Below are positions 3,703-50,878 of a stretch of DNA of 64,000 nt, piece by piece. The position numbers were made by a program, and so were the translations under genes. Within the stretch, counting starts at the first letter, position 1, and each line of letters opens with the position of its first letter. The DNA comes from Candidatus Multivoraceae bacterium (lineage in GTDB: Bacteria > Acidobacteriota > Thermoanaerobaculia > Multivoradales > Multivoraceae): contig OZ244782.1 of the NCBI GenBank assembly GCA_965219625.1, positions 2,727,551 to 2,791,550 of the forward strand. Direction: 5' to 3'. Under the pieces are notes generated by a model. It saw only the letters and a list, made by a program, of their open reading frames with translations. It was not told the DNA's origin and did not search any database.

Positions 3703-3763
3703 GGCGGAACTCCAGGGCGAGAAGGGAGGGGGCCGTAGGTGGAGGCGGAGAGGGCAGGCCGGC

Positions 3764-4387
3764 TCAGCCGGTCCGCGTGTCGAGCCTTGGCGCGTGAGTC
3801 GCTTCGAATCTCTCGATGGCGGGCAGCTGCTCGAGGAGGTAGCCAAGCTGGTCGACTCCGTCGAGCAGGCAGCGGCGGGCGAACGGGTCCACGTCGAAGG
3901 ACGTGTCCTCGCCGTCGGGGAGCCTGAGCGTCTGCGCTTCGAGGTCGATCGTCACCTGGGTCGCGGGGTCGTCCGCCACGGCTCTGAAGAGCGCCGCCGA
4001 GACCCGGTCGCTCACCGCCACGGTGAGTAGACCGTTCTTCAGTGCGTTGCTGCGGAAGATGTCCGCGAAGGAGGTGCTGATCACCGCGCGGAGGCCGTAG
4101 CCCACGAGAGCCCAGGGCGCGTGCTCTCGGGAGCTGCCGCAACCGAAGTTGTCGCCGGCGAGGAGGATCTTCGCGCTCTGGTGCTCTGGCCGGTTGAGCA
4201 CGAAGTCGACATTCGGCTCGGCGTTCGGATCGCCGTCTCGGTAGCGCCAGCGAGCGAACAGGCCCGAGGCGATTCCCGAGCGGTCGGTGACCTTCAGGTA
4301 GGACGCGGGGATGATCTGGTCGGTGTCGATGTTCGTGATCGGCAGCGGCGCCAGGGTGCTCGTCAGGCGGTCGAAGCGGAGGTTCAC
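3764..4387 (-). CDS. leuD: 3-isopropylmalate dehydratase small subunit
   Basis: [27 protein letters not shown]...; GTG start overlaps the leuC stop (GTGA). Confidence 0.85.
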
Positions 4388-5805
4388 GACAGGACCTCCC
4401 GCACGTCGGTAACCCGGCCGGTGATCGCCGACGCGGCCGCGGTCAGCGGGCTGGCAAGAAAGGTGCGGCCGCCGGCGCCCTGCCGGCCCTCGAAGTTGCG
4501 GTTCGACGTGCTGACCGCGTACTGGCCGGGCTCGAGCTGGTCGCCGTTCATCGCCAGACACATCGAGCAGCCGGCCTCGCGCCACTCGGCGCCGGCGTCG
4601 ATGAAGACCTGAGCGAGACCATCGTCTTCAGCCTGTTTCTTGACGGCTTCCGAACCGGGAACGACGAGCACCCTCAGGCCATCGGCGACCCTCTGTCCGC
4701 GCAGGACTCCCGCCGCGGCGCGCAGGTCGCTGTAGCGCGAGTTCGTGCAACTGCCAACGAAGACGACGTCGATGGGCTTTCCCGCAAGCCGTTGCCCGGG
4801 CTCCAGAGCCATGTACTCGAGCGCCTTGGCGAACGAGGCGCGGCCCTCGGGCTCGACGGACTCCGTCTCGGGAATGACGCCGGCGATGGGGATCGCCATG
4901 CCGGGATTCGTACCGTAGGTGACCATCGGTTCGAGAGCCGAAGCGTCGAGCAGGGTCGTCCGGTCGTAGACGGCGCCGTCGTCGCTGGGAAGCGATCGCC
5001 AGTCCTCGAGTGCGGCCTCCCAGGCTTCGCCCCGGGGCGCCATCCGCCGCCCCTTCAGATAGTCGAAGGTCACGTCGTCGGGCGCGATCAGCCCAGCTCG
5101 GGCGCCTCCCTCGATCGACATGTTGCACACCGTCATTCGGCCTTCCATGTCGAGGGCGCGGATCGCCTCGCCCGTGTACTCGAACACGTGGCCGGTACCG
5201 CCGCCGATGCCGAGCTTCGCGATGACCGCCAGGATGACGTCCTTCGCGACGACTCCCTCCTGGAGTCGGCCGTCGACGCGGACTTCGAAGGTGCTCGGCC
5301 GGTATTGGAGCAGGCACTGAGTGGCCAACACGTGGCCGACCTCGCTCGTGCCGATGCCGAACGCGAGCGCACCGACCGCGCCGTGGGTGCTCGTGTGGCT
5401 GTCCCCGCAGACGACCGTCATGCCGGGCTGCGTGGCGCCGAGCTCGGGCCCGATCACATGGACGATGCCGCGGCGGTCGTCGCCCATCGCAAACAACGGG
5501 ATGCCGTGGCGAGCGCAGTTCTCCTCGAGGCGCTCGAGTTGGGCTGCCCCCTCCGGATCGAGCACCCGGAGTCGGGAGCTGCCGATGGACGGATCCGTCG
5601 GCGTCGAGTGGTCCATCGTCGCCAGGGTCAGATCGGGACGCCGTACGGAGAGCGTCCGCTCGGAGAGCATCGTGAACGCCTGCGGCGAGGTCACCTCGTG
5701 GATCAGATGCAAGTCGACGTAGAGCGTCGCCGGCAGGCCGGCGTCGCCATCCGTGACGATGTGGCGCTGCCAGATCTTCTCGAACAGGGTCTGCGGCGCG
5801 GTCAT
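4384..5805 (-). CDS. leuC: 3-isopropylmalate dehydratase large subunit
   Basis: 473 aa aconitase-family protein ([12 protein letters not shown], Fe-S Cys motifs); ATGA overlap with the leuA stop. Confidence 0.9.
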
Positions 5806-7433
5806 GACTGGGCCGGATTCCGGCTCGACACCTTGAGCGTCGCCGGGCCGGGTTCGCCGGCGGTGTACTTCGTGCCGACCGCGGCGAGCATCCGATTCAG
5901 CGCGGCGAGGTACGCCTTCGCCGACGCGACGATGACGTCCGTATCCGCACCGTAGCCGCCGAAGACGCGGCCGCGGCCTTGACCGCCCTCCGGGCTCTTG
6001 ATCCGTACCGTAACCTCGCCGACCGCGTCGATGCCCTCGGTGACGCTGTGGACGTTGTACTCGAGCAGCGTGGCGCCGGCCTCGACCACCGCATCGATCG
6101 CCCGGTACGCAGCGTCGACCGGACCCGTGCCGACGCCGGGCGAGACATACTCGTCACCGTTCGGGCCGCGCAGCCGCACGGTCGCCGTCGGCATTCCGGG
6201 CCGTCCGCAGGTGATCTGCAGGTCGGTCAGAACGAAGAGCTCCGAGGGCGCGAGGATCTGCTGGTTGGCCAGCGCCTGCAGGTCGGCATCCGTGATGTCC
6301 TTCTTCTGATCGGCGAGCTGCTTGAAGCGGCGAAAAGCCTCGCTGAGTTCCTCCCGGTTCAGCTCGAAACCGAGCTCTTCCATTCGCGCCCGGAGCGCGT
6401 GCTTTCCGGAGTGTTTTCCGAGCACCAGACGGCTCTGGGTGAGACCGACGGTCTGGGGGGTCATGATCTCGTAGGTGCGCTGGTCCTGAAGCATGCCGTG
6501 CTGGTGAATGCCGGCTTCATGAGCGAACGCGTTCTCACCGACGATCGCCTTGTTTCGGGGTACCCCGATACCCGTGTAATGCGCGACCATGCGGCTGGTT
6601 CGGACGATTTCGGTCGTGTTGATCCGGCTGCCGATGCCGTAGATCTTCGGCCGGGTGTGGAGCGCCATGACGACCTCCTCGAGCGAGGTGTTCCCCGCGC
6701 GTTCGCCGATGCCGTTGATCGTCACTTCGACCTGCCGGACACCGGCTTCGATCGCGGCGAGCGTGTTCGCCGTGGCGCAGCCCAGGTCGTCGTGGCAGTG
6801 CGCCGACCACACGACGTTGTCCGCCCCGTCCGTTCGCTCGATCAGGCAACGGAAAAGGTCGGCGTACTCGGCCGGCATGTCGTAGCCGACGGTGTCCGGG
6901 ACGTTCAGCGTCGTGGCGCCCTCGGCAATCGCCAGCGAGAGCACCTCGACCAGGAAGTCCGGATCGGAACGGGTGCCGTCCTCGGGACTGAACTCGATGT
7001 CGTCGCACAGCGATCGGGCATGGGAGACCATGTGGCCGACCTGACTCAGCACCTGTTCGCGGGTCATTCCGAGCTTGCGCTCCATGTGCAGGTCGGAGGT
7101 GGCGATGAATGCGTGGATGCGCGGCTTCGCCGCGTCGCGCACCGCCTCCCAGGCCTTGTCGATGTCCTCCCGCCAGCAGCGGGCAAGCCCGGCGATGACC
7201 GGACCGTCTCGCTTGCCGACTTCGCGGGCGATGCGGCGCGTGGCTTCGAGGTCGTCGGGGCTTGCGGCAGGGAAGCCTGCCTCGATGATGTCCACGCCGA
7301 GGACCGCGAGCTGGCGCGCCACCTCGAGCTTCTCTGCACTTGTCATCGTCGCGCCTGGCGATTGTTCGCCGTCGCGGAGTGTCGTGTCGAAGATGCGGAC
7401 GTAGTCGCTTCTCTGCGCTCCGGTCACGATCAC
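5802..7433 (-). CDS. leuA: 2-isopropylmalate synthase
   Basis: 543 aa; [19 protein letters not shown]-like motif with a C-terminal LeuA dimerisation region; ATGA overlap with the ilvC stop. Confidence 0.85.
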
Positions 7434-37846: not shown

Positions 37847-37933
37847 GGACCTCCTGTTGTTGGAGGACCTCCTGTTGTTGGAGGACCTCCTGTTGTTGGA
37901 GGACCTCCTGTTGTTGGATCTTGAGAAGCTACT
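37847..37933. repeat. Tandem 18-bp repeat (gacctcctgttgttggag x ~4.8) immediately upstream of the glycine-zipper gene; each unit carries AGGAGG and a complementary CCTCC on the coding strand
   Basis: Direct inspection: cctcctgttgttggaggacctcctgttgttggaggacctcctgttgttggaggacctcctgttgttggat. Confidence 0.9.
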
Positions 37934-37985: not shown

Positions 37986-40900
37986 CTACCGGAAGTCGTG
38001 GCTCGGGATCCGCTCCAGGCGGTCGATGGGCCAGAACTTGTCCGCCTTGACGGATAGCGAACCGTCTTTCTTCTGCAGGACGCCCTCGACGATCAGGCCG
38101 GAGGAGGAGACGATCGTGCGGCGGTGTTTCTTGAACTCGTCCGGCATGACGATGGCCTGGCTCATCCCCGTCTCGTCCTCCAGGGTCAGGAACAGGAGGC
38201 CGCGGGCGGTGCCCGGGCGCTGGCGGACGATGACGGAACCGGCGGTGCGCACGCGGCGTCCGGCGGGAGACCTGGGGAGCTGGGCGGCGGGGACGACGTT
38301 TCGGCGGTCAAGCCCCCGGCGGTAGTACTCCATCGGGTGAGGGCCGGTGGTGATCGAGGCGAGGCGCAAGTCGGCGGCCGTCTCTTCCATCTGCGTCATC
38401 TCTTCGAGCGGCGAGGGAGAGGCGGTCGAAAGATCCGCGAACAGCGGGCCCTTCGGCTTCTCGACCTGAGCCGCCTGCCACAGGGCGGCGCGTCGTCCGA
38501 GATTCCCGGGCGCTCGATGAGCGTTGTGGGAGAAGCCGAAGGTTTGCTGTACGGCCTGCCGCCCGGCGTCGCCGCTCTCGCCCAGCCCGCCAAGCGCCCC
38601 GATGGACGCCAACGCAGTGAGTTCGTTTCGCCGCAACCGACAGCGTTCGGCCAGGTCCTCGATGGAGCGGAACCGTCGCGTCGCCTGCTCGGTTTCGATC
38701 CGTTCCGCCGCTTCGCGCCGCATTCCCTTGACGTAGCGCAACCCGAGGCGAATCGCGCCCGGCGGGGTCGGCTCGCCGGCCAGGGTGTTCTCGTCGGCGT
38801 CCGCCGGCCGGTCCTGCCAGCGGCACCGGACCCCCGATTCGTTCACGTCGATGGGCAGCACCGCGCTGCCCGCGCGCTGCGCTTCGCGGACCAATGTCGC
38901 CGGATGGTAGAAGCCCATCGGCCAGGCGTTCAGGAGCGACAGGAAGAAGGCGGTCGGGTGGTGGCGCTTCAAGTAGGCGCTGGCATAGGCGATCAGGGCG
39001 AAGCTGGCGGAGTGCGACTCGGGGAAGCCGTAGAGAGCGAACGAGGTGATCGCCTTGACGATCTGTTCCTGAGCAGGGCCCGTGATGTTCCGCTCGTTCA
39101 TGCCGGAACGAAGCCGGTCCTCGATCTGCTGCATCCGCTCGACGGAGCGTTTGAAGCCCATTGCGCGCCGTAACTCCTCCGCCTCGCCGCCGGAGAAGCC
39201 GGCCGCGACCATGGCGATCTTCAGGATCTGTTCCTGGAAGATCGGCACGCCGAGAGTTCGGCGCAGGATCGGCTCAAGCAGCGGGTGGGGGTAGGTGACG
39301 TCCTCGCGGCCGACCCGGCGCTCGAAGAACGGGTGGGCCATGCGGCCGACGATCGGCCCGGGGCGGATGATCGCGATCTGGATGACCAGGTCGTAGAACT
39401 TGTATGGCTTGTGGCGCGGCAGGGACGCCATCTGCGCCCGACTCTCGATCTGGAAGACGCCGACCGTGTCGGCGCGGCAGATCATCTCGTAGGTTGCCGG
39501 GTCGTCCGGCGGCAGGTGGGCCAGGTCGATCTGCTTGCCTTCGTGCCGACGGATCAGGGGCGCCGCCTCCTCCAGCGCGTTCAGCATGCCGAGGCCGAGC
39601 AGATCGACCTTGATGAGTCCCAGATCGGCGCAGTCGTCCTTGTCCCATTGGACGATGACCCGGTTCTCCATCGCCGCCGGTTCGAGCGGCACGATCTCGT
39701 CGAGCCGCCCGGCGCAGAGCACCATGCCGCCCGAATGCTGGCCCAGATGGCGGGGGTGGTTCTGGAGCTGCCGCCACAACCGGACGAAGAGCTGGATGCG
39801 CCGATCGTGGGGATCGAACCCGAGTTCCGTGAGCTCCTCGTCCATCTCCTTGCTGTCGCCGCGGGAGAGGTCGTAGTGCCAGTGGCCGAGCCCCTTCGCC
39901 AGGCGGTCGACCTGAACCTTGGAGCAGCCCAGCGCCTTCGCCGCCTCGCGCGCGGCCATGCGGTCGCGGTAGGTGATCACGTTCGCGGTCATCGCCGCGC
40001 CGTGCCGGCCGTAGCGCCCGTAGACGTACTGGATGACCTTCTCGCGCTTCACGCCGGACGGCAGGTCGATGTCGATGTCCGGCCACTCGCCGCGCTCCTC
40101 GGACAGGAAGCGCTCGAACAGCAGGTCCATCTTCACCGGGTCGACCGCAGTGATCGAGAGCGCGTAGCAGACGGCGGAGTTGGCGGCGGAACCGCGTCCC
40201 TGGGCCAGGATCCGCTCCTCCTTGCAGAAGCGGACGATGTCCCAGACGATCAGGAAGTAGCCGGCGAGATCGAGCTTCTCGATCAGCGCGAGTTCCTTCT
40301 CGAGTTGCGCGCCGGCCTTGGCGGTGAGTGGCCGGAAGCGTTCCTGGGCCCCTTGCCAGGTCCGTTCGCGGAGATGGGAGATCGCCGTTTCGCCAGCGGG
40401 AACCGGGTAGTCCGGGAAGCGGTAGCCGAGGTCGGCGAGCGTGAAGTCGAGTTCGCAGGCCAGTTCGTGCGCGGCGTGCACCGCGTGCGGCAGATCGGCG
40501 AACAGCCGGTGCATCTCCTCCGGGCTTCTCAGGCGCCGCTGGCGCTCGCGGGCGAGGCGGGCGCCGGCGGCGTCGACCGTCACATGGTGTCGAATCGCGG
40601 TCATCAGATCGAAGAGCGGTTTGTCGCGGGCTGTGGCGTAACGCACGCCGCCGGTGGCGACGACGGGCACGCCGAGCTGCTGCGCGATGCGGACCAACGC
40701 CTGGTTGCGGTGCTCTTCGGCGCGGATGCCGTGGCGCGCGAGTTCCACGTGCAGACGGCCGGGGAAGATGGCGTGCAGACGTTCGAGCTGCCGCCCGGCC
40801 GCCTCCAGCCCTTCCCGCGCGAGTGCTCGGCCAACGGGGTCGGCTTCGGCGCCGGCCAGACAGTGGAGTCCGTCCGCGTGTTCCTTGAGCAGAGCCCAGT

Positions 40901-41489
40901 TGATCCGTGCCTCGCCCTTGGGACGGTTGAGCGCTCCGGCGGTCAACAGGCGGCAGAGGTTGCGATATCCGCGACGGTTGCGCACCAGCAGATGAACGCG
41001 GGTCTCCTCGTCGTCCAGGGTTGGCCGCTCCTCGCGCCGACGCGAGGCAGCCGACGCTTGCGGCCGGTCGATGACCGCTTCGGCGCCCACCAGCGCCCGA
41101 ATTCCCGCTTCTCGCGCCGCCTTGTAGAAGCGCGGCGCGCCGGAGACTCCGTTCCGGTCGAGCAGGGCGACTGCCTCAAGCCCCAGGGCCGCCGCCCGCG
41201 CGACGAGGTCCTCGGGTTGGGACGAGGCGCGCAGAAAGGAGAACGACGACGCGGCGTGGAGTTCGGCGTAGGGCGGAGACTTCTGCCGGCGCTTCGGCGG
41301 CGGCTTGAACTCGCGCCGCCGCAGCCGTTCCTTGACCGCTCCCGGCGCGGCGTAGCCGGGGTTCGGCTCGCCTCGGGCGTCGAGCAGCCCGTTGTCGCCG
41401 CGGTTGGCGCGGCCGCTGCCCTTGCCGACGGCGCCGGACAGCCCCATGTTGCGCGCTGGCACGCTGATCTTGGGCGGCTTGCGAGCCAT
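37986..41489 (-). CDS. dnaE2: Error-prone DNA polymerase III alpha-like DnaE2 (ImuC)
   Basis: ...PPYAELHAASSFSFLRASSQPEDLV (PHP domain) followed by a Pol III alpha core; the 1309-aa track ORF has a spurious Arg/Pro-rich N-terminus. Start placed at the internal ATG 41489 (MARKPP), possibly later. Confidence 0.85.
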   Translation of the reverse strand: MARKPPKISVPARNMGLSGAVGKGSGRANRGDNGLLDARGEPNPGYAAPGAVKERLRRREFKPPPKRRQKSPPYAELHAASSFSFLRASSQPEDLVARAAALGLEAVALLDRNGVSGAPRFYKAAREAGIRALVGAEAVIDRPQASAASRRREERPTLDDEETRVHLLVRNRRGYRNLCRLLTAGALNRPKGEARINWALLKEHADGLHCLAGAEADPVGRALAREGLEAAGRQLERLHAIFPGRLHVELARHGIRAEEHRNQALVRIAQQLGVPVVATGGVRYATARDKPLFDLMTAIRHHVTVDAAGARLARERQRRLRSPEEMHRLFADLPHAVHAAHELACELDFTLADLGYRFPDYPVPAGETAISHLRERTWQGAQERFRPLTAKAGAQLEKELALIEKLDLAGYFLIVWDIVRFCKEERILAQGRGSAANSAVCYALSITAVDPVKMDLLFERFLSEERGEWPDIDIDLPSGVKREKVIQYVYGRYGRHGAAMTANVITYRDRMAAREAAKALGCSKVQVDRLAKGLGHWHYDLSRGDSKEMDEELTELGFDPHDRRIQLFVRLWRQLQNHPRHLGQHSGGMVLCAGRLDEIVPLEPAAMENRVIVQWDKDDCADLGLIKVDLLGLGMLNALEEAAPLIRRHEGKQIDLAHLPPDDPATYEMICRADTVGVFQIESRAQMASLPRHKPYKFYDLVIQIAIIRPGPIVGRMAHPFFERRVGREDVTYPHPLLEPILRRTLGVPIFQEQILKIAMVAAGFSGGEAEELRRAMGFKRSVERMQQIEDRLRSGMNERNITGPAQEQIVKAITSFALYGFPESHSASFALIAYASAYLKRHHPTAFFLSLLNAWPMGFYHPATLVREAQRAGSAVLPIDVNESGVRCRWQDRPADADENTLAGEPTPPGAIRLGLRYVKGMRREAAERIETEQATRRFRSIEDLAERCRLRRNELTALASIGALGGLGESGDAGRQAVQQTFGFSHNAHRAPGNLGRRAALWQAAQVEKPKGPLFADLSTASPSPLEEMTQMEETAADLRLASITTGPHPMEYYRRGLDRRNVVPAAQLPRSPAGRRVRTAGSVIVRQRPGTARGLLFLTLEDETGMSQAIVMPDEFKKHRRTIVSSSGLIVEGVLQKKDGSLSVKADKFWPIDRLERIPSHDFR

Positions 41490-41562
41490 CCGATAAGCGT
41501 AAATCAGGCGGCAATAAGTGCGCAAGAGCTCACGCTGTCTCCGGCCCCCCTTCCGCGGGCGG

Positions 41563-43278
41563 TCAGTTCGGGCGTCGCGGCGCCCGGAGCGGCTGACGCG
41601 CTCGATACAGCGCGAGGCGGTCGAGACGTTGCGGAGAATTCCCGCCGGCGGCCTGCCGCTCCTGCTCGAGTGCCCGTTGTTGCCAGAGCACGGCGTCGTC
41701 GAAACGTCCGGCTTCGGCCAGGGCCATGGCCAGGGTCTCCAGATGGTCGAGCGCTGGTTGCTCGTCGACAACACCCTGAGCGAGGTCGACCGCCCGGGCG
41801 CCGTCGCGAGCCGCATCGTCGGGGCTCGTGGCAAGAAGCCGCGCCAGGAGGTGGCGTGTCGCGATGTCGGCGGGGAAGCGCTCCAAAGCCTCGTCCAACG
41901 TCCGGCGCGCCGCAAGGTAGCGGCCGGTCTCGAACCGCATGAGACCGAGATTGAAACGCGCCTGGAGGTCGTCCGGCGTCAACGCGACGAGGGCCTGAAG
42001 CTGGTCCGCGGCTGCTTCCGCCCGCCCCGAGCCGATGAGCAGGGCGGCGAAGGTGCGGCGGGCTTCGGCCATCGCGGGGTCCGCGGCGACGATCCGCTCG
42101 AGTTCGGCGATGGCGCCCTCCGCGTCGCCAACGACGGCTCGCATCTGCGCCCGCTCAAGGCGCCAAGGCAGGTTGTCCGGCATGAGGTCCGCCGCTCGCT
42201 CCAGGTGGGCGGCGCTCTGGGTTCGCCGGCCGGCTCGTTTGAGGAGCGCCGCGAGCGCGTAGTGGGCCGGACCGTGTTCCGGGTCGAGCGCGATCGTCCG
42301 GCGCAGATGACGTTCCGCGCGTTCGTTCTGGCCGACGACGAGCAGCGAACCGGCGAGGCGGAAGTGAGCCTCCTCGTCCGTTTCGTCCGTTTCGAGGATC
42401 TCCTCGTAGAGTCGAATCGCCCGCTCGTAGTCGCCCTCGGCGGCGGCGGCGACGGCGCGGTCGAGCGGCAGCGTGACGTCCTCCTCGAGCGGCCTCAGGC
42501 GTTCAAGCAACGGGTCGTACATCGGAATGAGGACGTCCTGGTTCAGGCGCCACGCCTCGGCGGCCCGGTCGGCGTCGCCGAGGGCGCGGTAGGCGAGGCC
42601 GACGTGGTGGTTCGCCTCGCTGCCCTCGGGCTGGGTCGCCGCGACCTCCTGGAAGAACTCCAGCGCCCTGGCCGGGTCGTCGCGCTCGAGGGCGATGTAG
42701 CCGAGTCCGACGCGGGCCGTGGCGCTTTGGGGATAGGCCTCGAGCGCCTTCTTGTAGGCGGCTTCCGCGGCGTCGACGTCGCCCGCGGCGACGTGGAGTT
42801 CCGCCAGCCGGATCAAGGTCGGCGGGTCATCGGGCCGGATGGCGAGCGCCTCTTCGGCACTTGCGAGCGCTGCTGGCAGGTCGCCGAGCTCGATGTGGAG
42901 CAGCAGCTTGAAGTAGGCCCACTGGAAGTCCGCCGGCGCGAGATCTCGTAGCTGGTCGAGGCAAACCGCGGCGGCGTCATGAAGCTCGTAGTGCAGGTAG
43001 CGAGCGCAGAGGTCGCCGAACGTGTTCGCCGCCAATTGCGCCTGCATCGGCTCGGCGGCATGTTGCAGCGCGCCGGCCGTGAGCGTTCGGTAGTCCCGGA
43101 GCCTCTGGGCTTGAGCTGCGGGGACCCGGCTCAGGTCGGGCGCCGGCACCTGGGTGAGATCCAGCGTCTCCTTGACCCGCCGGATCTCCAGGATCTCGGC
43201 GAAGTCCTGGGCGCCGCCCGGCAGGGAAGCGAGAGACAGCGCGGCCAACATGACCAAGCTCGCAGGAACCGAGTTCAC
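41563..43278 (-). CDS. Secreted TPR-repeat protein
   Basis: 571 aa; signal peptide MNSVPASLVMLAALSLASLPGGAQ; >10 TPR-like repeats. Confidence 0.7.
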   Translation of the reverse strand: MNSVPASLVMLAALSLASLPGGAQDFAEILEIRRVKETLDLTQVPAPDLSRVPAAQAQRLRDYRTLTAGALQHAAEPMQAQLAANTFGDLCARYLHYELHDAAAVCLDQLRDLAPADFQWAYFKLLLHIELGDLPAALASAEEALAIRPDDPPTLIRLAELHVAAGDVDAAEAAYKKALEAYPQSATARVGLGYIALERDDPARALEFFQEVAATQPEGSEANHHVGLAYRALGDADRAAEAWRLNQDVLIPMYDPLLERLRPLEEDVTLPLDRAVAAAAEGDYERAIRLYEEILETDETDEEAHFRLAGSLLVVGQNERAERHLRRTIALDPEHGPAHYALAALLKRAGRRTQSAAHLERAADLMPDNLPWRLERAQMRAVVGDAEGAIAELERIVAADPAMAEARRTFAALLIGSGRAEAAADQLQALVALTPDDLQARFNLGLMRFETGRYLAARRTLDEALERFPADIATRHLLARLLATSPDDAARDGARAVDLAQGVVDEQPALDHLETLAMALAEAGRFDDAVLWQQRALEQERQAAGGNSPQRLDRLALYRARQPLRAPRRPN

Positions 43279-43697
43279 CGTTCGGGGATCGCCGGAATCT
43301 CGTCTTCCGGAAGACCTTTCGTCAGCAAGTACTGCCGGATGCGTCTTGCGAACGCGGTAGCCCGGACGTGTTCATCCCGAGCGTCCTCGGCGCTGAAGTG
43401 GGCGAAGACGTTGTATTCGGCCCGGTTCCGATCGTCCAGCCCTTCGCTGAGTTCCCTGGCCCAGGAGGGTTCGATCTCCGCCGTTTGCACCAGGTGAAGG
43501 CCGAACATACTGCGAACGCCGGCATGGGTGGTTGTCTCGATCTCCCGAACCGCGAGGGCAGCCTTGGCCGCGTGGAAGATGGAGTAGTACGACCTGGTTA
43601 CCGCGTCTTCGTAGTGGCCGGTGTTCAGGAGAGCCAGAGATGCGCCCAGAGACGAAAGTGCGCGCCTCCACTCCGCAGCGACGAGCATGCGGTTCAA
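43275..43697 (-). CDS. HEPN-domain protein (toxin component of a HEPN/MNT pair)
   Basis: 140 aa; helical, ...TRSYYSIFHAAKAAL...LDDRNRAEY resembling PF05168-type HEPN; 4-bp overlap with the upstream MNT gene. Confidence 0.6.
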   Translation of the reverse strand: MNRMLVAAEWRRALSSLGASLALLNTGHYEDAVTRSYYSIFHAAKAALAVREIETTTHAGVRSMFGLHLVQTAEIEPSWARELSEGLDDRNRAEYNVFAHFSAEDARDEHVRATAFARRIRQYLLTKGLPEDEIPAIPER

Positions 43698-44029
43698 AGG
43701 ACAGTCACGCCTTCGCGCTCGACTGCGTCACAGTAAGGGGAACGGAGGCCTCTCAGTGATTCCCATTCGCCTTCCGTGTACGCCTGGATCGAAGGGGCCA
43801 TGGCGGAGGTGGCGGCCATCGTGTAGCCAAGCCGGCGGAGAGGCCGCATCAGCTCGGCGGCGTCGTCCCGCACGATGAGCAGAAGATCGACATCGCTCTC
43901 GTCGTGTGCGTCGCCACGCGCCTTGGAGCCGTATAGCACCAAGCGCAGCACGACGTCTGCGTGTTCACGCCGCAGCGCTTCCCGGTATGCGTCGAGCCAA
44001 GCTTCTTCTTCGGGGTGGAGTGTAAGCAT
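43694..44029 (-). CDS. Minimal nucleotidyltransferase (MNT) domain protein (antitoxin partner)
   Basis: LYGSKARGDAHDESDVDLLLIV = GSxxRG...DxD NTase motif; 111 aa. Confidence 0.75.
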   Translation of the reverse strand: MLTLHPEEEAWLDAYREALRREHADVVLRLVLYGSKARGDAHDESDVDLLLIVRDDAAELMRPLRRLGYTMAATSAMAPSIQAYTEGEWESLRGLRSPYCDAVEREGVTVL

Positions 44030-44084
44030 GGTCGGGTCCGTCGCCGAGCCGATTCTACAAGTGACGACCGGACGGCTTGGCCGC

Positions 44085-44459
44085 TCAAACCTGTTGATGG
44101 AAGTAGTAGCAGAGGCCGTCCGGCGCGACGACGAAGAAGACCAGGAACTTCTTGCCGTCCCGTTTGTCGATGCGCCAGTTCGCGATCTTCACGCCCTTCG
44201 CCTTGAGTTCGGCCCGCGCCCGCTTGATGTCCGTTACCAGAATCGCCGCGCCGTCCATGCTCGCGTCGCCCCCGTTGACCGCGAAACCGATCCGGACGCC
44301 GTCGCGTTCGAGGATCACCGTCGGCGCCGGTTCCTCGAGGCGTTCGACTTCCTCGAGGCCGAAGGCGTCCGCGTACCACTTCGCCGTCGCGTCCAGGTCC
44401 TCGACCGGCAAGGCGAGCACGTCGTCCTGGAACGGGTAGGCAGCCTCGAACAGCTTCAT
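44085..44459 (-). CDS. VOC/glyoxalase-bleomycin-resistance family protein
   Basis: 124 aa; two betaalphabetabetabeta-type halves by pattern. Confidence 0.55.
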
Positions 44460-44500
44460 CGCGTGAAGCCTACCGCCGAGGTCATGGAATCATCGGCGCC

Positions 44501-44884
44501 ATGGAACACGAGGCCCTGGAGCGCGCCCGCCGCAAGGCGGAGGCCATCGGCATCTCGAACGTCGAACGGCACATCTTCCTCTGCTGCGACCAGACGAAGC
44601 CGAAGTGCTGCGACCGGGACGTATCGCTCGAGTCCTGGGAGTACCTCAAGCGCCGGTTGCGCGAACTCGGTCTCAGCGAATCCGGCGGAGTCCTGCGGAC
44701 GAAGGCGAACTGCCTGCGCGTCTGCGACGCGGGCCCGATCGCGGTCGTCTACCCGGAGGGAGTCTGGTACTGGGGCTGTACGCCGGATGTCCTCGAGCGG
44801 GTGATTCAGGAGCACCTGATCGGCGGCCGGGTCGTGGCGGATCGGGTGATCGCGAACGCAGCTGTTTTTAGCAATCTGCCGTAA
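44501..44884 (+). CDS. Thioredoxin-like [2Fe-2S] ferredoxin family protein
   Basis: 127 aa; Cys pattern [14 protein letters not shown] ... CLRVCDAGP. Confidence 0.5.
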
Positions 44885-45133
44885 TTTTATCCAGATGCGA
44901 TAAAAATCGGGCAGATCCCTATAATCGGTCGGTGGATCCGACCCGCAACCCCTACAGCCCGGGCGCCGGGAGCCCTCCGCCCGGCTGCTCACGGAGGTCG
45001 ATGAGGCTTCTCGCGAGCGGAGACAGGGATGGGGTGTGGGTGCTGTTCAGGCCTTGACAGTCTCCGAGCTTCCGAGGTTGAGGCTTGAGCAGGGCCGAGT
45101 TCCGAGCGAGACTGGCCTTGGCCGAGGCCCGCT

Positions 45134-45589
45134 TCAGTTCGCGCACAGGTTCTGCTGACTCTGCAGCCAACGCCGGCACCCGGCGCCCTTCTTCTCCGGG
45201 TAGACCTTGCCACGAGGCTTCCCGAGCAGACGTACGTCCTTGAAGTCGTCGCCCAACGGTCCGTCGCGGGAGTAGAGGAGCCTGGCGCCGCTCAGGCGGG
45301 CGAGCGCCAGCACATGTTCGTCGTTCGATTTGAAGGAAGCACTCTGCCTCAGCGACTCGGCCTCCTTGTCCACGCGCGAATCCGGGACGCTCGTGGCCTT
45401 GCTCTGCCGGAGTGCCTCCTGCAACCAGGCGCGGAACGCCCTGTTCTCGCAGAGTTCCCTTAGGTTCTTGCCGCCGACGACGAGACGGGCGCCTCCTGCT
45501 TCGATCCAGCGCTTGAATTCTCTTGCACCCGGACACGGATCAGGCCGGAAGACCGCAGCGACGACGTCGTTGTCGAGAATCGTACACAC
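45134..45589 (-). CDS. PIN-domain nuclease (VapC-like)
   Basis: N-terminus TILDNDVVAAVFRPDP resembles the VapC xLDTNVxSExxRPxP motif; C-terminus SNDEHVLALARLSG...LYSRDGPLGDDF resembles DALIAATA...TRNxxDF; 151 aa. Confidence 0.55.
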   Translation of the reverse strand: MCTILDNDVVAAVFRPDPCPGAREFKRWIEAGGARLVVGGKNLRELCENRAFRAWLQEALRQSKATSVPDSRVDKEAESLRQSASFKSNDEHVLALARLSGARLLYSRDGPLGDDFKDVRLLGKPRGKVYPEKKGAGCRRWLQSQQNLCAN

Positions 45590-45601
45590 GACTGTTGCCG
45601 C

Positions 45602-46975
45602 CTACAGGCCGATGGACCGGTTCGTCTCTTCCATGAAGAACCGTCGGTAGCTTGGAGGGGCACCGAGGATGTTCCCGTTCTCGTCGATTCGCAGGGGGTG
45701 GATGCGGACTTCCAGCTCCTCTCGCTCAAAGTAGAGGATGGAGACCTGGTCCGGCTTCAGGCCGCTCCGGCCATCGCGGACATCCATGCGGACACGGTCG
45801 ATCAGATGGTCGCCGTGGGTCTCCACGATCAGCTGTTTGTCCCGAGCGGCCACGGCGCAAAAGAGCGAGCCGAGGGCGGCTTGAGCGCTGGGGTGAAGAT
45901 GGACCTCCGGCTGCTGGAGGAGGAACGTGCCGGGCGCGTCGGTCCTCAACAACTCCGTGATGACGGGCAGCACTTGGCTCACGCCGTAGCCCACGTCGGT
46001 CAGGTTCCGCCAAGGGCCCTTGAGCCTGCGGCTGCCCGACTTCCGTACCTGGATCTGGAAGGGCTCGCTCGTCTTGCCGAGGCGCCGGACGCGTATCTCG
46101 TCGAAGAGGCCCGAAGCGCGTCCGAACTCCTCGAGTGCGGTGTGCAGCGTGGACCACTCTCGACGGTCCCGGTACGAGGCGTCGGCCAGGTACATGGGAA
46201 CGGCTGCGCCTTCCGGATCGCTCGTCACGCGCGAGGGGTCGTACGTGCGGCGTGGCTTCGAGCGGACGGGCGCGCTGGCGAAAGGGCGCTGGAGTGACTG
46301 GAACCGGGGCCAACTGACATCCCGTATGAGTGCCTGAAGGCCCTTCCGATCGTCCTCGGAGGGCGCGCCGGCCCCCTCTGGGGAGGTCCAGTCTGTTTCC
46401 GGTGCGCCATTTCCTGCGTCGACGGCGGAGATCAGCCCTTGCAGAAGAAAGAACCAGGAAATCGGAACGCTATGTTCGTCGAACGAGAGACCGGCGGGGA
46501 GGGCGTCCTTCAGGCCGTGTGACCAGCTGCCGTTCTTCGTGCCGACAGTCGTCTTGCCTCTCTTCAAGTCGAGCTCGATGAACATGTCCTCCTGTTGAAT
46601 CCGTTCGCTCGCCAGTGCCGGCTGGTTGCGCTTCTTCGAGAAGGTGAAGTCGAACGATCGTTCCTTGCCGGTAGTCGGTCGGCCACGCTCGGTCCATCGC
46701 AATGCCGGCGCGGTGAACCCCACTTCGAACGAGTCTGCGCGGCTGCCGCGAGCCCCCCGGTGATGGGCGATCTCGTCGAAGCTCCCGAGGTCGTACGGCT
46801 TCTCCTTGAAGTCCGGCAGTGTGTTCAGATAGCCGAGGTCCCAGAGCGCTCGGATGAGCGCGAGGAAGGACGTTTTCCCTGTGCTGTTTTCGCCGACGAG
46901 CAGGGTGAGCGGCGCCATCCGCGCGCTTTGTTCGTCGCGGAAGCAGCGATAGCCGCGGAGCCTGATCTCGTTCAT
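45602..46975 (-). CDS. ABC/OLD-family (AAA_21-like) ATPase
   Basis: Start at the internal ATG 46975: MNEIRLRGYRCFRDEQSARMAPLTLLVGENSTGKTSFLALI (Walker A); FLLQQPEVHLHP (Walker B/D-loop); VETHGDHL (H-loop); 458 aa; 12-nt gap before the PIN gene. Confidence 0.75.
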   Translation of the reverse strand: MNEIRLRGYRCFRDEQSARMAPLTLLVGENSTGKTSFLALIRALWDLGYLNTLPDFKEKPYDLGSFDEIAHHRGARGSRADSFEVGFTAPALRWTERGRPTTGKERSFDFTFSKKRNQPALASERIQQEDMFIELDLKRGKTTVGTKNGSWSHGLKDALPAGLSFDEHSVPISWFFLLQGLISAVDAGNGAPETDWTSPEGAGAPSEDDRKGLQALIRDVSWPRFQSLQRPFASAPVRSKPRRTYDPSRVTSDPEGAAVPMYLADASYRDRREWSTLHTALEEFGRASGLFDEIRVRRLGKTSEPFQIQVRKSGSRRLKGPWRNLTDVGYGVSQVLPVITELLRTDAPGTFLLQQPEVHLHPSAQAALGSLFCAVAARDKQLIVETHGDHLIDRVRMDVRDGRSGLKPDQVSILYFEREELEVRIHPLRIDENGNILGAPPSYRRFFMEETNRSIGL

Positions 46976-47103
46976 CGGCGGTAACTCTCTTGGCCCAGCC
47001 TGGGCTTGGGGCGTTTTCGACGGCGGGATTCGTGTCGGGAGAGGCCGGCCGGTCGCTCTTTCTGGACGACGCGGAGGACGGCCGAACCGAGCCCTGACCC
47101 ATC

Positions 47104-48618
47104 TCAATCGTATACGCCGTCTGCGAACCAGCGCTCCGACAGCCGGTCGCGGTAGAGCCGGCACACGGCGCCGTTCTGCAGTTCCACGTCCCAGTAGTCG
47201 CGGAGCGTCGGCTGGTCGCGCCACCAGCCCTCCTCGAGCTCCCACGGGCCGGCGGCGACGCGGACCGAGCCTTCGATGCGAACGTGGCGCTTCTCGGTGG
47301 GCAGAGGGTTGATCTGCACCGGCTCGGGACAGGGAGTGCGCGCTTCGCCGTCCGCGGTCAGGACCTCGACCTCGACCGGCGGTCGCAGGGTGCGGACCGT
47401 CAGCATGCCGCGGCCGGGCCTCGGTTCGAGCCGGATCCGGGGCGGCGGAGGCGGGTCGTAGGCGGCGATCCGGAAGCGTTCCGGCAGGTGACCGTCCCGG
47501 GTGCGTGGCGAGCCGATCCGGTTCGGGCCGAGCAGGGCGAGCAGCCGCGCGGTAACGGCGGCCAGGCGGTCGGGCGACAGGGCGGTCGGCCCGAGCAGGG
47601 AGAGCTGCGTCTGGCGCGGCGCGTCGGGATGAGCGAGCAGTTGCATCGAGGTGATCGGCGCCCGCGGCGGCTCTCCCTCCAGGTGGAGTCGTACGAGCGA
47701 CAACAGGCTGCGCGCATCGCGGGTAGGCGCGGGCAGTTCGATGGCCAGCTCGTGGAGGCCTTCGGGCTCGAGCTTGAGCGACAGCTCGAGCCGCTTGCAA
47801 CCCATTCCCCGCGCTTCGAGCCGGTTGGCGAGCCGCTCGACCGCGCCGCGGGTGGCGAACAGGAACGGTTCCAGGTTGTCGATCGGCCACTCGAAGGTCT
47901 GCGCCTCGCGGAAAGTGGGCGACGGCGGGCGGGGGGTGAGCGGTGTCGGGTCGATGCCGCGGGCGGCGGCATGGAGCGCGGCGCCGCGCTCGCCGAGACG
48001 GCTGTGGATCTCGCCCGCCGGCAAGCCGGCGAGGTCGCCGACGGTGTGCAAGCCCCAGAGCTTCAGCGTGTGGAGGATCTCCTGGTCGTCGCCGTCCGCC
48101 GCCGCGTTGTCGCTGCGTTCGAACAGGGACTTGAGCGGCAACGGCGCCAGGAACCTGGCCTCGCTGCGGGGCGCCACGACGTTCGGCGCCCGCGGCAGGG
48201 CGGCCGCGGCTCGCGCTGCGAGCTTGCTGCCGGCGATACCGACCCGGCCGGGCAGCCCGGCGCCGTCCATGTCCCGCATCATCGTCAGGCCGAGGCCGTG
48301 TTCGTCGTCGACTGCGATGTCGAGGTAGATCATTCCCTCGCCGCCGTTCTCGACTCGGGGCGAGAAGGCGCCGGCGATCTCGAGCAGCACGTCCTGCGCA
48401 GTGTGTTCGCGTTCCGGATCGCGAGCGCGGGAGACGAGGCCGGACTCGATGTTCCGAGCCTGGGCCACGGTCAGCCCCGCGTGGATTCCTGCGCGACGCG
48501 CCAGCCGGGAGGCGGCGACGATCCGGGCCGAAGGTCCCTCATGAACGACGACGGCTTCGCGGGCAAGCTCCGGCGCCCCCCGCAGGTAGGCCGCGAGAGG
48601 GAACAGCGCCGCTCTCAT
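47104..48618 (-). CDS. imuB: ImuB (Y-family polymerase-like mutasome subunit)
   Basis: MRAALFPLAAYLRGAPELAREAVVVHEGPSARIVAASRLARRAGIHAGLTVAQARN... (IMS/UmuC-like N-terminus); start at the internal ATG 48618. Confidence 0.75.
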   Translation of the reverse strand: MRAALFPLAAYLRGAPELAREAVVVHEGPSARIVAASRLARRAGIHAGLTVAQARNIESGLVSRARDPEREHTAQDVLLEIAGAFSPRVENGGEGMIYLDIAVDDEHGLGLTMMRDMDGAGLPGRVGIAGSKLAARAAAALPRAPNVVAPRSEARFLAPLPLKSLFERSDNAAADGDDQEILHTLKLWGLHTVGDLAGLPAGEIHSRLGERGAALHAAARGIDPTPLTPRPPSPTFREAQTFEWPIDNLEPFLFATRGAVERLANRLEARGMGCKRLELSLKLEPEGLHELAIELPAPTRDARSLLSLVRLHLEGEPPRAPITSMQLLAHPDAPRQTQLSLLGPTALSPDRLAAVTARLLALLGPNRIGSPRTRDGHLPERFRIAAYDPPPPPRIRLEPRPGRGMLTVRTLRPPVEVEVLTADGEARTPCPEPVQINPLPTEKRHVRIEGSVRVAAGPWELEEGWWRDQPTLRDYWDVELQNGAVCRLYRDRLSERWFADGVYD

Positions 48619-48640
48619 GCAGGCGATGCGGGTTCTTCGT

Positions 48641-49474
48641 TCATCCGGCACGGCGCAGGTTCTCGGTGGGTGAGGCGGCTTGGCCGCTTTCCGCGGGTCG
48701 GGGTCGAGGTCGGGACAGGGGGCGTCGCAAGCTGCCGGTGAGCACGCGGAGTTCGATATCCGTCGCAGTACCTGGCCGTTCGCCGCGCGACTTGGCGAGT
48801 TCAAGCCGGGCTCGGAGCCCGTCCAGCAACCGCGGACTCCTCGGTGCGGCCTGCGCCCAGAGGGCGCGGCTCGGCGACGTTCGCGACCTCAGATCGAGAA
48901 TCTTCTGTGGCGCCGTACCCCCGGCGCGGTACGGCGTCGCGATCAGCAGCGCGGCTTGATGGTCCTCCGCCGTCCGCCGCAGCCGCAGCCACGCCGATTC
49001 CTTGCCGCGTCCGCCGGGTACGGGAGGCAGGCCCAGGTCGATGACGACCAGGGGGAAGCCGCCGTCGATCAGCGCCTCGGCGCTGCCCAGCGCCTGCTTG
49101 AGCCGCTCGGGCCGCGCCCAGAGCAGTCGTTCGAGGTCGACTCCGGCGCGCGCCGCCACCTGGGGATCGAAGTGATCGCCGAGATCGACCAGCGCCGCCG
49201 ATTCACCACTCTCGGTAGCGCCGGCCAACAGTTCGGTCACCAGCGAGAAGCGCCCGCTGCTTCGCGCCCCGACCAACTCCACCGTCTGTCCGCGCCGGAT
49301 GCCGCCCCCCAGCAATCGGTCGACGCCGGCAAGCCGCGTGGGGAACACGCCGTCGACGGCGTCCTGGACTCCGGCCTGATCGTCGCTGTTGACCAGATCC
49401 CGCCCGCGTCGGATCTGACGCAGCAGAGACCGCGGCCATTGCGGATCGGTGAGTGCTGCGGGCAGGGAAGTCAC
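48641..49474 (-). CDS. imuA: ImuA (RecA/SulA-like cell-division inhibitor family)
   Basis: 277 aa; ...RGQTVELVGARSSGRFSLVTELLAGA...PLVVIDLGLPP; positioned directly upstream of imuB. Confidence 0.65.
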   Translation of the reverse strand: MTSLPAALTDPQWPRSLLRQIRRGRDLVNSDDQAGVQDAVDGVFPTRLAGVDRLLGGGIRRGQTVELVGARSSGRFSLVTELLAGATESGESAALVDLGDHFDPQVAARAGVDLERLLWARPERLKQALGSAEALIDGGFPLVVIDLGLPPVPGGRGKESAWLRLRRTAEDHQAALLIATPYRAGGTAPQKILDLRSRTSPSRALWAQAAPRSPRLLDGLRARLELAKSRGERPGTATDIELRVLTGSLRRPLSRPRPRPAESGQAASPTENLRRAG

Positions 49475-49604
49475 GACGACGTTCAGCGGAACGAGAGAAG
49501 TCGAAGAAATGGAAAGAGAGCATCTTAGCGCAACTAAGGCGGAAAAAGTGGCTCACATCGGCGAACCTCGCAAAGCCCCGAAGCGTCGTACGAAGACTGC
49601 GAGC

Positions 49605-49641
49605 CGAACTCTGAATATGCTGAACTCTTATTCAGAGTTCG
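49605..49641. promoter_or_regulatory. 37-bp perfect inverted repeat (CGAACTCTGAATA-N11-TATTCAGAGTTCG) in the divergent imuA/fic intergenic region; candidate LexA-type (SOS) operator
   Basis: The arms are exact reverse complements. The outer ends are CGAAC...GTTCG, and the spacer repeats GAACTCT. It lies 131 bp upstream of imuA and 77 bp upstream of fic. Confidence 0.45.
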
Positions 49642-49717
49642 TGGACAAGGACTGGATTCTCCGTTCCGTGATAAAACTCACGGCGCAACTCTTCATACGA
49701 CGAAGCGGAGTGCATCG

Positions 49718-50878
49718 ATGAGACGTTCCATGCCGGGCCGCTACGAGGTCAGCGCTGCAAGCGGCGAGCAGGTGCGAGCCTTCATACCGGCGCCGTTGCC
49801 ACCTGAGCCGCCGCTTGATCTGCAAGGCCCTCTTCTGCGTTCCCTGGAAGCCGCCAGTCTCGCCTTGGGACGGCTGGAGGGCGCGAATCCACTCCTGGAG
49901 CCGACGATTCTCGTCTACTCCTACGTCCGCCAGGAGGCGGTGCTCTCCTCCCGGATCGAGGGCACCCAGTCTTCGCTTGCCGATCTTCTGCTCTTCGAGC
50001 TGGACCAGGCGCCGGGCGTGCCGCGCGACGACGCGGCCGAAGTCTCACGCTACGTAGCGGCTCTGGAACACGGGCTGCGGCGATTGCGTGAGGATTTCCC
50101 GTTCTCGAACCGCCTGATCCGCGAGTTGCACCGCATTCTCCTGTCCGCTGGGCGCGGCGCGAGCAAGGACCCAGGCGAGTTTCGGCGTTCTCAGAACTGG
50201 GTCGGCGGCACGCGCCCCGGAAACGCCGTCTTCGTTCCCCCGCCGCACCTTGCCATACCGGACTGCATGGGCGACCTCGAACGCTTCCTGCACGCTGACG
50301 GCGATGGCCTGCCCGCCCTTGTACGCGCCGGCTTGGCTCACGTTCAGTTCGAGACGATCCACCCTTTCCTGGACGGCAACGGGCGTATCGGCCGGCTCCT
50401 GATTACCCTGATGCTGTGCGAAGCAGGCCTGTTGCGTAGGCCGCTCCTCTATCTCAGCGTCTACTTCAAACGCCATCGGGAGCGCTACTACGAACTCCTG
50501 AACGGCGTTCGGCAGACCGGCGACTGGGAAGCGTGGCTGGCGTTCTTTCTCGACGGTGTGCAGGAAACCGCGGAGAACGCTGCTGCAACCGCCCGGCGGC
50601 TCTCCGAGCGCTTCGCGGGCGACAGGGAACGCATCGCCGAACAAGGCCGCCGTGCCGGGTCAGCTCTTCGGGTCCATGAAGTCCTCCAGGAACGGCCGAT
50701 TCTGACGATTCCCGAGACCTGCAGGCGCACCGGCCTCTCCTTTCCGGCCGTCTCGGCTGCGCTGGGGCTCCTGGAAGAAGCACGCCTCGTCCGCGAGATC
50801 ACCGGCTTCCGTCGAAATCGAGTCTACGTTTACGACGAATACCTGAAGATCCTGAACGAAGGCGTGGAGGACGCATGA
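49718..50878 (+). CDS. fic: Fic family protein (AMPylase-type) with an N-terminal inhibitory helix
   Basis: HPFLDGNGRIGR = Fic motif HPFx[DE]GNGR; upstream SSRIEGTQ = [ST]xxxE[GN] inhibitory motif; 386 aa. Confidence 0.85.
   Translation: MRRSMPGRYEVSAASGEQVRAFIPAPLPPEPPLDLQGPLLRSLEAASLALGRLEGANPLLEPTILVYSYVRQEAVLSSRIEGTQSSLADLLLFELDQAPGVPRDDAAEVSRYVAALEHGLRRLREDFPFSNRLIRELHRILLSAGRGASKDPGEFRRSQNWVGGTRPGNAVFVPPPHLAIPDCMGDLERFLHADGDGLPALVRAGLAHVQFETIHPFLDGNGRIGRLLITLMLCEAGLLRRPLLYLSVYFKRHRERYYELLNGVRQTGDWEAWLAFFLDGVQETAENAAATARRLSERFAGDRERIAEQGRRAGSALRVHEVLQERPILTIPETCRRTGLSFPAVSAALGLLEEARLVREITGFRRNRVYVYDEYLKILNEGVEDA

Follow-up and report, generated by a model that had tools for sequence, protein, structure and literature searches.

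The 64,000-nucleotide window analyzed here (the whole stretch taken from contig OZ244782.1 of a Candidatus Multivoraceae bacterium, phylum Acidobacteriota) carries, at positions 45134-46975, a gene for an ABC ATPase followed on the same strand by a gene for a small PIN-domain protein. The two genes form a conserved, co-evolving unit whose pairing across genomes goes far beyond chance, and by sequence comparison the pair is a divergent, remote homologue, with the same architecture, of the phage-tested system HEC-03 (Hma-embedded candidate 03). We consider it likely that the two genes work as one anti-phage module, organized like an operon and belonging to the "ABC ATPase plus nuclease effector" class, with an ATPase of the NsnB type. 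Nothing here reveals a new kind of immunity; what is new is a large, unannotated family of HEC-03-like architecture. The parts of the module are as follows.

45602-46975, minus strand: ATPase gene, from ATG at 46975 to the stop at 45602, 457 aa (open reading frame [ORF] and translation); ABC ATPase of the OLD/AAA_15-AAA_21 type with a C-terminal DUF3696 tail, NsnB/HEC-03-like (Pfam, PADLOC, AlphaFold2 [AF2]/Foldseek)
45590-45601, minus strand: spacer of 12 nt from the stop codon of the ATPase gene to the start codon of the PIN gene, which we read as translational coupling
45134-45589, minus strand: PIN gene, GTG start at 45589, end at 45134, 151 aa; predicted stand-alone VapC-like PIN nuclease with catalytic residues D6 (45572-45574), E45 (45455-45457), D90 (45320-45322), and D109 (45263-45265)

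The start codons of both genes are backed by the near-invariant N termini of their homologues, "MC..D" for the PIN protein and "M..I.L..FRCF" for the ATPase. The original prediction, made from the letters of the window, had described an ATPase gene and, 12 nt further along the same strand, a gene for a PIN protein of 151 aa, and all of this was confirmed in the sequence; the ATPase is present as described except that it measures 457 aa, not 458. The three motifs quoted for it were also found, namely GENSTGKTS at residues 28-36, LLQQPEVHLHP at 352-362, and ETHGDHL at 385-391.

To follow the pair across genomes, we ran a PIN-seeded scan of one genome per species, covering representatives of 185,579 species, which confirmed 470 relatives, of which the best 80 were fetched; the figure of 470 is a lower bound, as the scan tested only stretches fitting two short peptide patterns. 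An ATPase homologue lies directly upstream on the same strand in 81 of the 82 PIN-seeded loci, which come from more than 10 phyla, and these ATPases are full length, with 43-70% identity; in the sole unpaired locus the PIN gene lies 105 nt from the end of its contig. Co-occurrence of both genes in homologous loci had been set as a test when the module was first proposed, and in these 81 loci it holds. Of 80 homologous loci, about 75 have a stop-to-start distance between -20 and +23 nt, and the two codons often overlap. All ATPase-seeded loci examined have a gene of 153-167 aa directly downstream, with a faint Pfam PIN match in one of them, none of these downstream products having been compared directly with the window PIN protein. 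Pairwise distances among the ATPases correlate with those among the PIN proteins (Mantel r of 0.58, a value reached by 0 of 2000 permutations).

PIN-bearing taxa include Acidobacteriota (Thermoanaerobaculia, "Ca. Multivorans," and Vicinamibacterales), Dehalococcoidia and other Chloroflexota, Spirochaetia, Nitrospirales, Latescibacterota, Binatia, Gemmatimonadota, Alpha- and Gammaproteobacteria, Rhodothermales, Opitutales, and Entotheonella. The PIN proteins fall into 569 clusters, and ATPase-related proteins number in the thousands, a total that extends beyond the window family. Record titles among loci L003 to L082 (SB0661_bin, APA_bin, RHO_bin, Langseth_MAG, and Entotheonella) suggest what we take to be metagenomes of sponges and other marine hosts, so that an enrichment in sponge symbionts is possible. 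In two metagenome-assembled genomes (MAGs) of Ca. Multivorans (L008, positions 5149-5982, and L009, positions 5001-5999), the ATPase is truncated, with only residues 184-457 or 1-331 aligning, and the PIN gene remains; the module may be decaying there, or the assembly may be at fault. A Spirochaetia MAG (L076, positions 2826-6456) carries two ATPase-PIN modules in tandem, with ATPases 63% and PIN proteins 48% identical; its flanks appear to be of the DrmD/DrmMI type, going by pooled neighbor scans, and the arrangement looks like a paralogous duplication in a DISARM-like locus.

The small protein has a PIN fold, as judged from its sequence and structural model, and its active site looks catalytically competent, without degeneration. 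Against Pfam PF01850 the window protein scores 23.1 bits, slightly below the cutoff of 23.6; an AF2 model built from a 40-member family alignment has a mean predicted local distance difference test score (pLDDT) of 94.8, and its best Foldseek match in the PDB is VapC26 (probability 1.0, TM 0.55-0.60). Residue conservation in both proteins was counted over 70 family members. The acidic residues D6, D90, and D109 are kept in 70/70 and E45 in 69/70, while S88, H92, and D115 are invariant and the terminal cysteines C2 and C149 nearly so; this conservation, together with the VapC26-like model, bears out the earlier description of a VapC-like PIN protein with N- and C-terminal acidic motifs. No PADLOC v2.0.0 model matches the window PIN protein at E<=1, nor any of four diverse family members at E<=0.1. 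The PIN family is a large separate branch and the new part of the finding, and the absence of a model for this partner explains why PADLOC v2.0.0 overlooks so large a family.

For the window ATPase, Pfam returns AAA_15 (3.4e-18) and AAA_21 (3.3e-17), and it places DUF3696 at the C terminus with 24.0 bits, above the cutoff of 22. The PADLOC models it matches are NsnB (1.4e-44), PDC-M55A (1.7e-29), and the HEC-03 ATPase (8.6e-27), followed by superfamily-level matches to AriA (~1e-20), PtuA/GajA (~1e-8), Old (within 1e-20 to 1e-8), and HEC-01A; a search of NCBIfam gave P-loop-level matches only, far under the cutoffs. In the AF2 model (pLDDT 80), the top Foldseek matches are SMC/Rad50 heads, GajA, PtuA, and OLD, and the protein therefore has an ABC ATPase fold. 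These results agree with the ABC/OLD-type assignment made at the outset. Its segments, with conservation in the family, are listed below.

46868-46894, minus strand: Walker A (P-loop) GENSTGKTS, residues 28-36; G28, G33, K34, and T35 kept in 70/70
46295-46735, minus strand: Insert-1 beta-sheet, the hypervariable central region, residues 81-227; candidate trigger-sensing surface
45983-45991, minus strand: G-Y-G signature equivalent, residues 329-331, in place of the canonical SGG, as in NsnB; 70/70
45890-45925, minus strand: degenerate Walker B FLLQQPEVHLHP, residues 351-362, with Q-Q for the canonical D-E; Q354, Q355, P356, and E357 in 70/70
45803-45823, minus strand: H-loop ETHGDHL, residues 385-391; E385 and H387 in 70/70
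45656-45760, minus strand: DUF3696 C-terminal segment, residues 406-440 (PF12476, 24.0 bits); predicted PIN docking site by analogy with NsnB-NsnC

Two features of this protein bear on how it might work. The frequency of the majority residue is 0.32 at residues 81-227 versus 0.75-0.79 at residues 1-80 and 228-457; beta strands occupy residues 82-154 of the AF2 model, and the Insert-1 region is swapped or unalignable in four homologous loci (L047, L069, L071, and L075). Such variability is the pattern that would be expected of a surface recognizing fast-changing partners. The second feature is the Walker B motif, an invariant Q-Q-P-E in the family where canonical relatives have D-E-P-E and HEC-03 has E-Q. 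Judging from the alignments, the DUF3696 clade (the window family, HEC-03, and NsnB) is without the usual catalytic glutamate, and the window ATPase probably binds nucleotide and hydrolyzes it slowly if at all; because QQPE stands in for DE-PE, a slow or non-hydrolyzing nucleotide-dependent switch is likelier than a motor.

The reading of the pair as a defense system leans on HEC-03, an ABC ATPase plus VapC-like PIN pair picked from genes embedded in Hma systems, which in E. coli lowered plaque formation by orders of magnitude for at least two phages and required both genes to do so (Payne et al., bioRxiv 10.1101/2024.01.29.577857). It comes from Pseudomonas cichorii ATCC 10857; its ATPase (WP_025259138.1) is a 461-aa "DUF3696 domain-containing protein," and its second gene (WP_025259137.1, 157 aa) has a 14-nt overlap with the ATPase gene (Payne et al., bioRxiv 10.1101/2024.01.29.577857, Table S2). 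The lettering of the two components differs between sources: in PADLOC-DB v2.0.0, PDLC04147 ("HEC-03A") is the PIN protein and PDLC04148 ("HEC-03B") the ATPase, the reverse of the preprint text. The module in the window had been proposed as undescribed, and that claim falls, since HEC-03 is an already described and phage-tested DUF3696-type ATPase plus VapC-like PIN pair; the accompanying statement that a PIN effector in this position fits no named system is countered by HEC-03 and also by the PIN-like domain of NsnC in Menshen.

At the level of the proteins, the window and HEC-03 ATPases are 30% identical over residues 228-396 (BLASTP, E 8e-23) and have the blocks TDVGxGVSQVLP and QPExHLHP in common, and the HEC-03 ATPase model PDLC04148 matches the window ATPase at E 8.6e-27, a partial match of residues 236-442 to profile positions 221-432 of 458, with the NsnB and PDC-M55A models scoring higher. 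A profile of 36 HEC-03-type PIN proteins aligns to the window PIN profile over 114 columns (E 8e-5, 18% identity), and in this profile-profile alignment residues D6, E45, D90, and D109 fall on D/E5, E52, D110, and D129 of the HEC-03 family. When the HEC-03 PIN protein was compared as a single sequence with the window family profile (hhalign), a 36-column match with a probability of 21% was obtained.

Genomic neighborhoods provide a second line of evidence. About 15% of the loci lie inside DISARM or Hma systems, and the others lie in defense islands or among housekeeping genes. Upstream neighbors (n = 75) include 7-8 SNF2 helicases of the DrmD/HmaA type (E values down to 3.7e-304) and 4 HmaB proteins (DUF1156 methylase), and downstream neighbors (n = 78) include 6 DrmMI (E = 0) and 6 HEC-01A (an ABC ATPase partnered with DUF4276). 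Three ATPase-seeded loci show how settings differ: the L086 pair sits between DUF1156 (HmaB) and DUF499, the layout that defines Hma-embedded candidates; the island around the L083 pair also holds a PLD-SNF2 helicase, AIPR, an Eco57I-type methylase, PrlF, and an AAA_21/DUF4276 pair; and the L084 pair has dsr and other metabolic genes around it. An AAA_21 plus DUF4276 pair (HEC-01/PD-T4-4-like) was observed shortly downstream of the PIN gene in the fully annotated loci L083 (9383-11342) and L085/L086 (8999-10767), and in 6 of the 78 loci the first sizeable gene further downstream encodes a HEC-01A-type ATPase; where the AAA_21/DUF4276 pair stands beside the ATPase-PIN pair, two distinct ABC-ATPase/nuclease modules are thus embedded together. 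The patchy spread (470 relatives in the scan of 185,579 species) and a GC content of 0.64-0.65 in the insert that holds the pair, versus 0.71-0.72 in its flanks, mark an accessory module, which we count in favor of defense.

The DISARM, Hma, and defense-island contexts and the homology to HEC-03 thus support the anti-phage reading that was part of the original prediction. Several observations weigh against it. The similarity of the window ATPase to the HEC-03 ATPase lies mainly in the C-terminal half, and the N-terminal halves barely align. The HEC-03 PIN model PDLC04147, which scores its own HEC-03 PIN protein at 9.4e-86, misses the window PIN protein and four diverse relatives, and the profile-profile probability of 61% makes for a moderate link to the HEC-03 PIN protein. 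Neighbors vary widely and are housekeeping genes in most homologous loci, and the window itself, beyond a HEPN/MNT pair and a Fic gene, shows no recognizable defense island. No relatives were found in IMG/VR with the PIN profile, or in INPHARED phages and PLSDB plasmids with the PIN protein, so there is no mobility evidence of this kind. Finally, a protein with a Q-Q Walker B may not hydrolyze ATP at all, which leaves any "ATPase-driven" step uncertain.

If the pair is an anti-phage module, the following sequence of events can be proposed. The ATPase would bind ATP through its intact P-loop and oligomerize head to head, as ABC/SMC-type heads do, and its C-terminal DUF3696 tails would grip the PIN protein and block its RNase activity, by analogy with NsnB-NsnC. 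The hypervariable Insert-1 could then detect the phage through one of its proteins or through a shift in nucleotide state, and the resulting conformational change would release or activate the PIN protein. With its D-E-D-D metal site, the PIN protein would cleave RNA (tRNA, rRNA, or mRNA, as VapC toxins do), so that translation stops and the infection is aborted. Given the QQPE motif, the ATPase would act in this scheme as a slow or non-hydrolyzing nucleotide-dependent switch rather than as a motor. How the PIN protein docks, what sets it off, that RNA is its target, and what the nucleotide does are all inferred, by analogy with the solved complexes of PARIS and Septu and with the NsnB-NsnC models.

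Some of the same observations would fit a toxin-antitoxin (TA)-like addiction or stress module, in which the PIN protein is a VapC-type toxin and the ATPase its antitoxin or regulator, the main role of the pair being to stabilize its genomic region or to arrest growth under stress, and not phage defense. The PIN protein is VapC-like with an intact active site, the genes are coupled as tightly as in TA operons, many loci have housekeeping neighbors, and another TA-type pair (HEPN/MNT) adjoins the module in the window. We nevertheless think this explanation unlikely: there is no small DNA-binding antitoxin of the VapB type, a 457-aa ABC ATPase lies upstream in every complete locus examined, the family was not found in the searched PLSDB plasmids, where addiction modules are common, and the pair is repeatedly embedded inside DISARM and Hma, with a homologue, HEC-03, shown to be phage defensive. 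TA and abortive-infection roles are not mutually exclusive.

A different origin could be imagined in Menshen (NsnABC; Millman et al. 2022; Li et al. 2025), whose NsnB is an AAA_15 plus DUF3696 ATPase (Li et al., NAR 2025, PMC12065111). AlphaFold3 predicts that the inactive PIN-like N domain of NsnC is sandwiched by the two DUF3696 tails of an NsnB dimer, and in NsnB the SGG signature is replaced by GxG and the Walker B motif is E-N; NsnC is an inactive PIN (inPIN) adaptor fused to a C-terminal toxin, and all Menshen inPIN families are without the D-E-D-D residues (PMC12065111). The window pair might then be a reduced Menshen, a decaying remnant made up of NsnB and a shortened NsnC after loss of NsnA and of the C-terminal toxin domain. 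In keeping with this, NsnB is the best PADLOC match of the window ATPase and a full-length match for family member P0217, the DUF3696 tail and the GxG variant are both known from NsnB, and NsnC starts with a PIN-like domain. Such an origin is nonetheless very improbable. Neighbor scans found DUF262/NsnA at most once among 75 upstream and once among 78 downstream neighbors, D-E-D-D is kept in 69-70 of 70 window-family PIN proteins whereas the Menshen inPINs are without it, and a full-length two-gene form that spans more than 10 phyla and co-diverges is unlike decay.

The immediate surroundings of the pair in the window had been described as a split imuAB/dnaE2 cassette with a HEPN/MNT pair beside the module. 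The genes concerned are these.

48641-49474, minus strand: imuA, upstream of the pair and on the same strand
47104-48804, minus strand: imuB, upstream of the pair and on the same strand
37986-41915, minus strand: dnaE2, with its stop at 37986, about 5 kb downstream of the pair
43694-44029, minus strand: MNT gene, 111 aa (Pfam), with a 4-nt overlap with the HEPN gene
43275-43697, minus strand: HEPN gene, 140 aa (Pfam)
44501-44884, plus strand: cysteine-rich ORF of 127 aa, convergent to the PIN gene, no Pfam match
49718-50878, plus strand: Fic/DOC protein with Fic_N and a C-terminal winged helix, divergent from imuA; the Fic-imuA arrangement is kept in the related genome L002

After the PIN gene, the order is the oppositely oriented 127-aa ORF, a glyoxalase-like gene, MNT/HEPN, a TPR protein, and dnaE2. 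Pfam confirmed the HEPN/MNT pair, whose HEPN gene is called at only 85 aa in L002; the 127-aa ORF is probably a real gene, because 80% identity is kept in the same genome. The imuA, imuB, and dnaE2 genes are indeed present around the insert, and to that extent the description stands; as a functional clue it fails, the synteny being common to only one related genome. When the ImuA, ImuB, DnaE2, HEPN, MNT, Fic, and TPR proteins of the window were searched (tblastn) against the 82 loci as a check on a mutasome link, synteny appeared in L002 only, and the link was rejected. Weak ImuA/RecA-like matches (39% identity over ~100 aa) occur ~5 kb upstream of the pair, on the opposite strand, in three loci of Gammaproteobacteria or "Ca. 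Azophilus" (L052, L053, and L067), probably from one lineage. Between positions 41400 and 47400, the flanking direct and inverted repeats found were short and imperfect, with no convincing mobile-element borders; no Rfam family was found in 42000-50000, and no sigma-70-like promoter in 44400-49800. A perfect tandem repeat of 18 nt in 4.0 copies (GGACCTCCTGTTGTTGGA, 100% matches) lies at 37847-37918, just beyond the 3' end of dnaE2.

It is extremely unlikely that the pair serves the SOS mutagenesis cassette imuA-imuB-dnaE2 as an accessory factor, perhaps co-transcribed with imuAB and acting on nucleic acids in translesion synthesis: the pair does follow imuB on the same strand, after 128 nt that contain no terminator-like site, and the order Fic-imuA-imuB-ATPase-PIN recurs in one Ca. 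Multivorans genome (with extra genes inserted after the PIN gene), but among the 82 loci the imuAB synteny is confined to the window genome and L002 (the same locus as L006), other Thermoanaerobaculia hold the ATPase-PIN pair elsewhere, neighborhoods in other phyla are unrelated to imuAB, and the GC content of the insert is below that of the cassette genes. Because the setting is common to only one related genome, it is incidental to function; the imuAB linkage comes from ancestry at this site or from a hot spot for insertions there.

With the anti-phage module as the preferred reading, the pair can be placed among known systems. VapBC has in common with it a PIN protein with four conserved acidic residues; in place of VapB, the window has a 457-aa ATPase upstream, and the 12-nt gap leaves no room for an ORF. 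Because VapB is absent, the pair is not a member of VapBC. Besides the four acidic residues, the PIN family keeps C2, S88, H92, D115, and C149 invariant or nearly so.

PARIS (AriA/AriB) and Septu (PtuA/PtuB) are two-gene systems of an ABC ATPase and a nuclease, in which the ATPase oligomer holds the nuclease until it is triggered, and their complexes have been solved. They are the best mechanistic analogy, as the window ATPase matches AriA at ~1e-20 and PtuA/GajA at ~1e-8 and its model resembles PtuA and GajA; they differ in their effectors, DUF4435/Toprim for AriB and HNH for PtuB, whereas the window has a PIN protein, a DUF3696 tail, and a Q-Q Walker B. Where PARIS, Septu, Gabija, and OLD have a Toprim (DUF4435 or fused) or HNH partner, the window partner is a PIN protein.

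HEC-03 has the same composition as the window pair: the gene for a DUF3696-type ATPase of ~460 aa precedes, on one strand, that for a stand-alone VapC-like PIN protein of ~155 aa, the genes nearly touching or overlapping. Hma systems also house some homologues of the window pair. The two families differ in the Walker B motif, E-Q in HEC-03 and Q-Q in the window family, and in their sources, Pseudomonas and Burkholderia for the HEC-03 PIN family and uncultured Acidobacteriota, Chloroflexota, Spirochaetota, Nitrospirota, and others for the window family. The window ATPase resembles NsnB at least as much as it resembles the HEC-03 ATPase. With Menshen it has in common the best PADLOC match, the DUF3696 tail, the GxG signature, a non-canonical Walker B, and a partner with a PIN fold like that of the NsnC N domain. 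In Menshen, NsnA (ParB-DUF262 plus ParBDB) lies upstream, whereas imuB does so in the window, and the partner in the window is a single-domain 151-aa PIN protein with an intact D-E-D-D, whereas NsnC is an inactive PIN plus toxin; with no NsnA and a single-domain, active-site PIN protein, the window pair falls outside Menshen. The Menshen survey took NsnA as its starting point and therefore did not extend to pairs that lack it, and HEC-03 goes unmentioned there (PMC12065111).

The window family thus bridges HEC-03, with its DUF3696 ATPase and active PIN protein, and Menshen, with its inactive PIN adaptor fused to a toxin. We tentatively suggest, as one possible history, that the window clade is a third, unnamed branch of "DUF3696 ABC ATPase plus PIN-fold partner" systems, possibly near the ancestral state, in which an NsnB-like ATPase with a catalytically dead Q-Q Walker B would serve as a nucleotide-sensing clamp on an active, stand-alone PIN RNase; Menshen would then have arisen from a PIN protein that lost catalysis, became an inPIN adaptor, and gained swappable toxins and NsnA, and the clade would be widespread in uncultured, apparently often sponge-associated bacteria while staying invisible to PADLOC v2.0.0, the one annotation tool applied in this analysis. 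A profile for the window PIN family would recover loci in Acidobacteriota, Chloroflexota, Spirochaetota, Nitrospirota, Latescibacterota, and other little-studied phyla. The comparison also makes two ideas testable: that DUF3696 tails are a general PIN-docking device, and that "ATPases" with a Q-Q, E-Q, or E-N Walker B, as in the window family, HEC-03, and NsnB, are nucleotide-gated switches and not motors.

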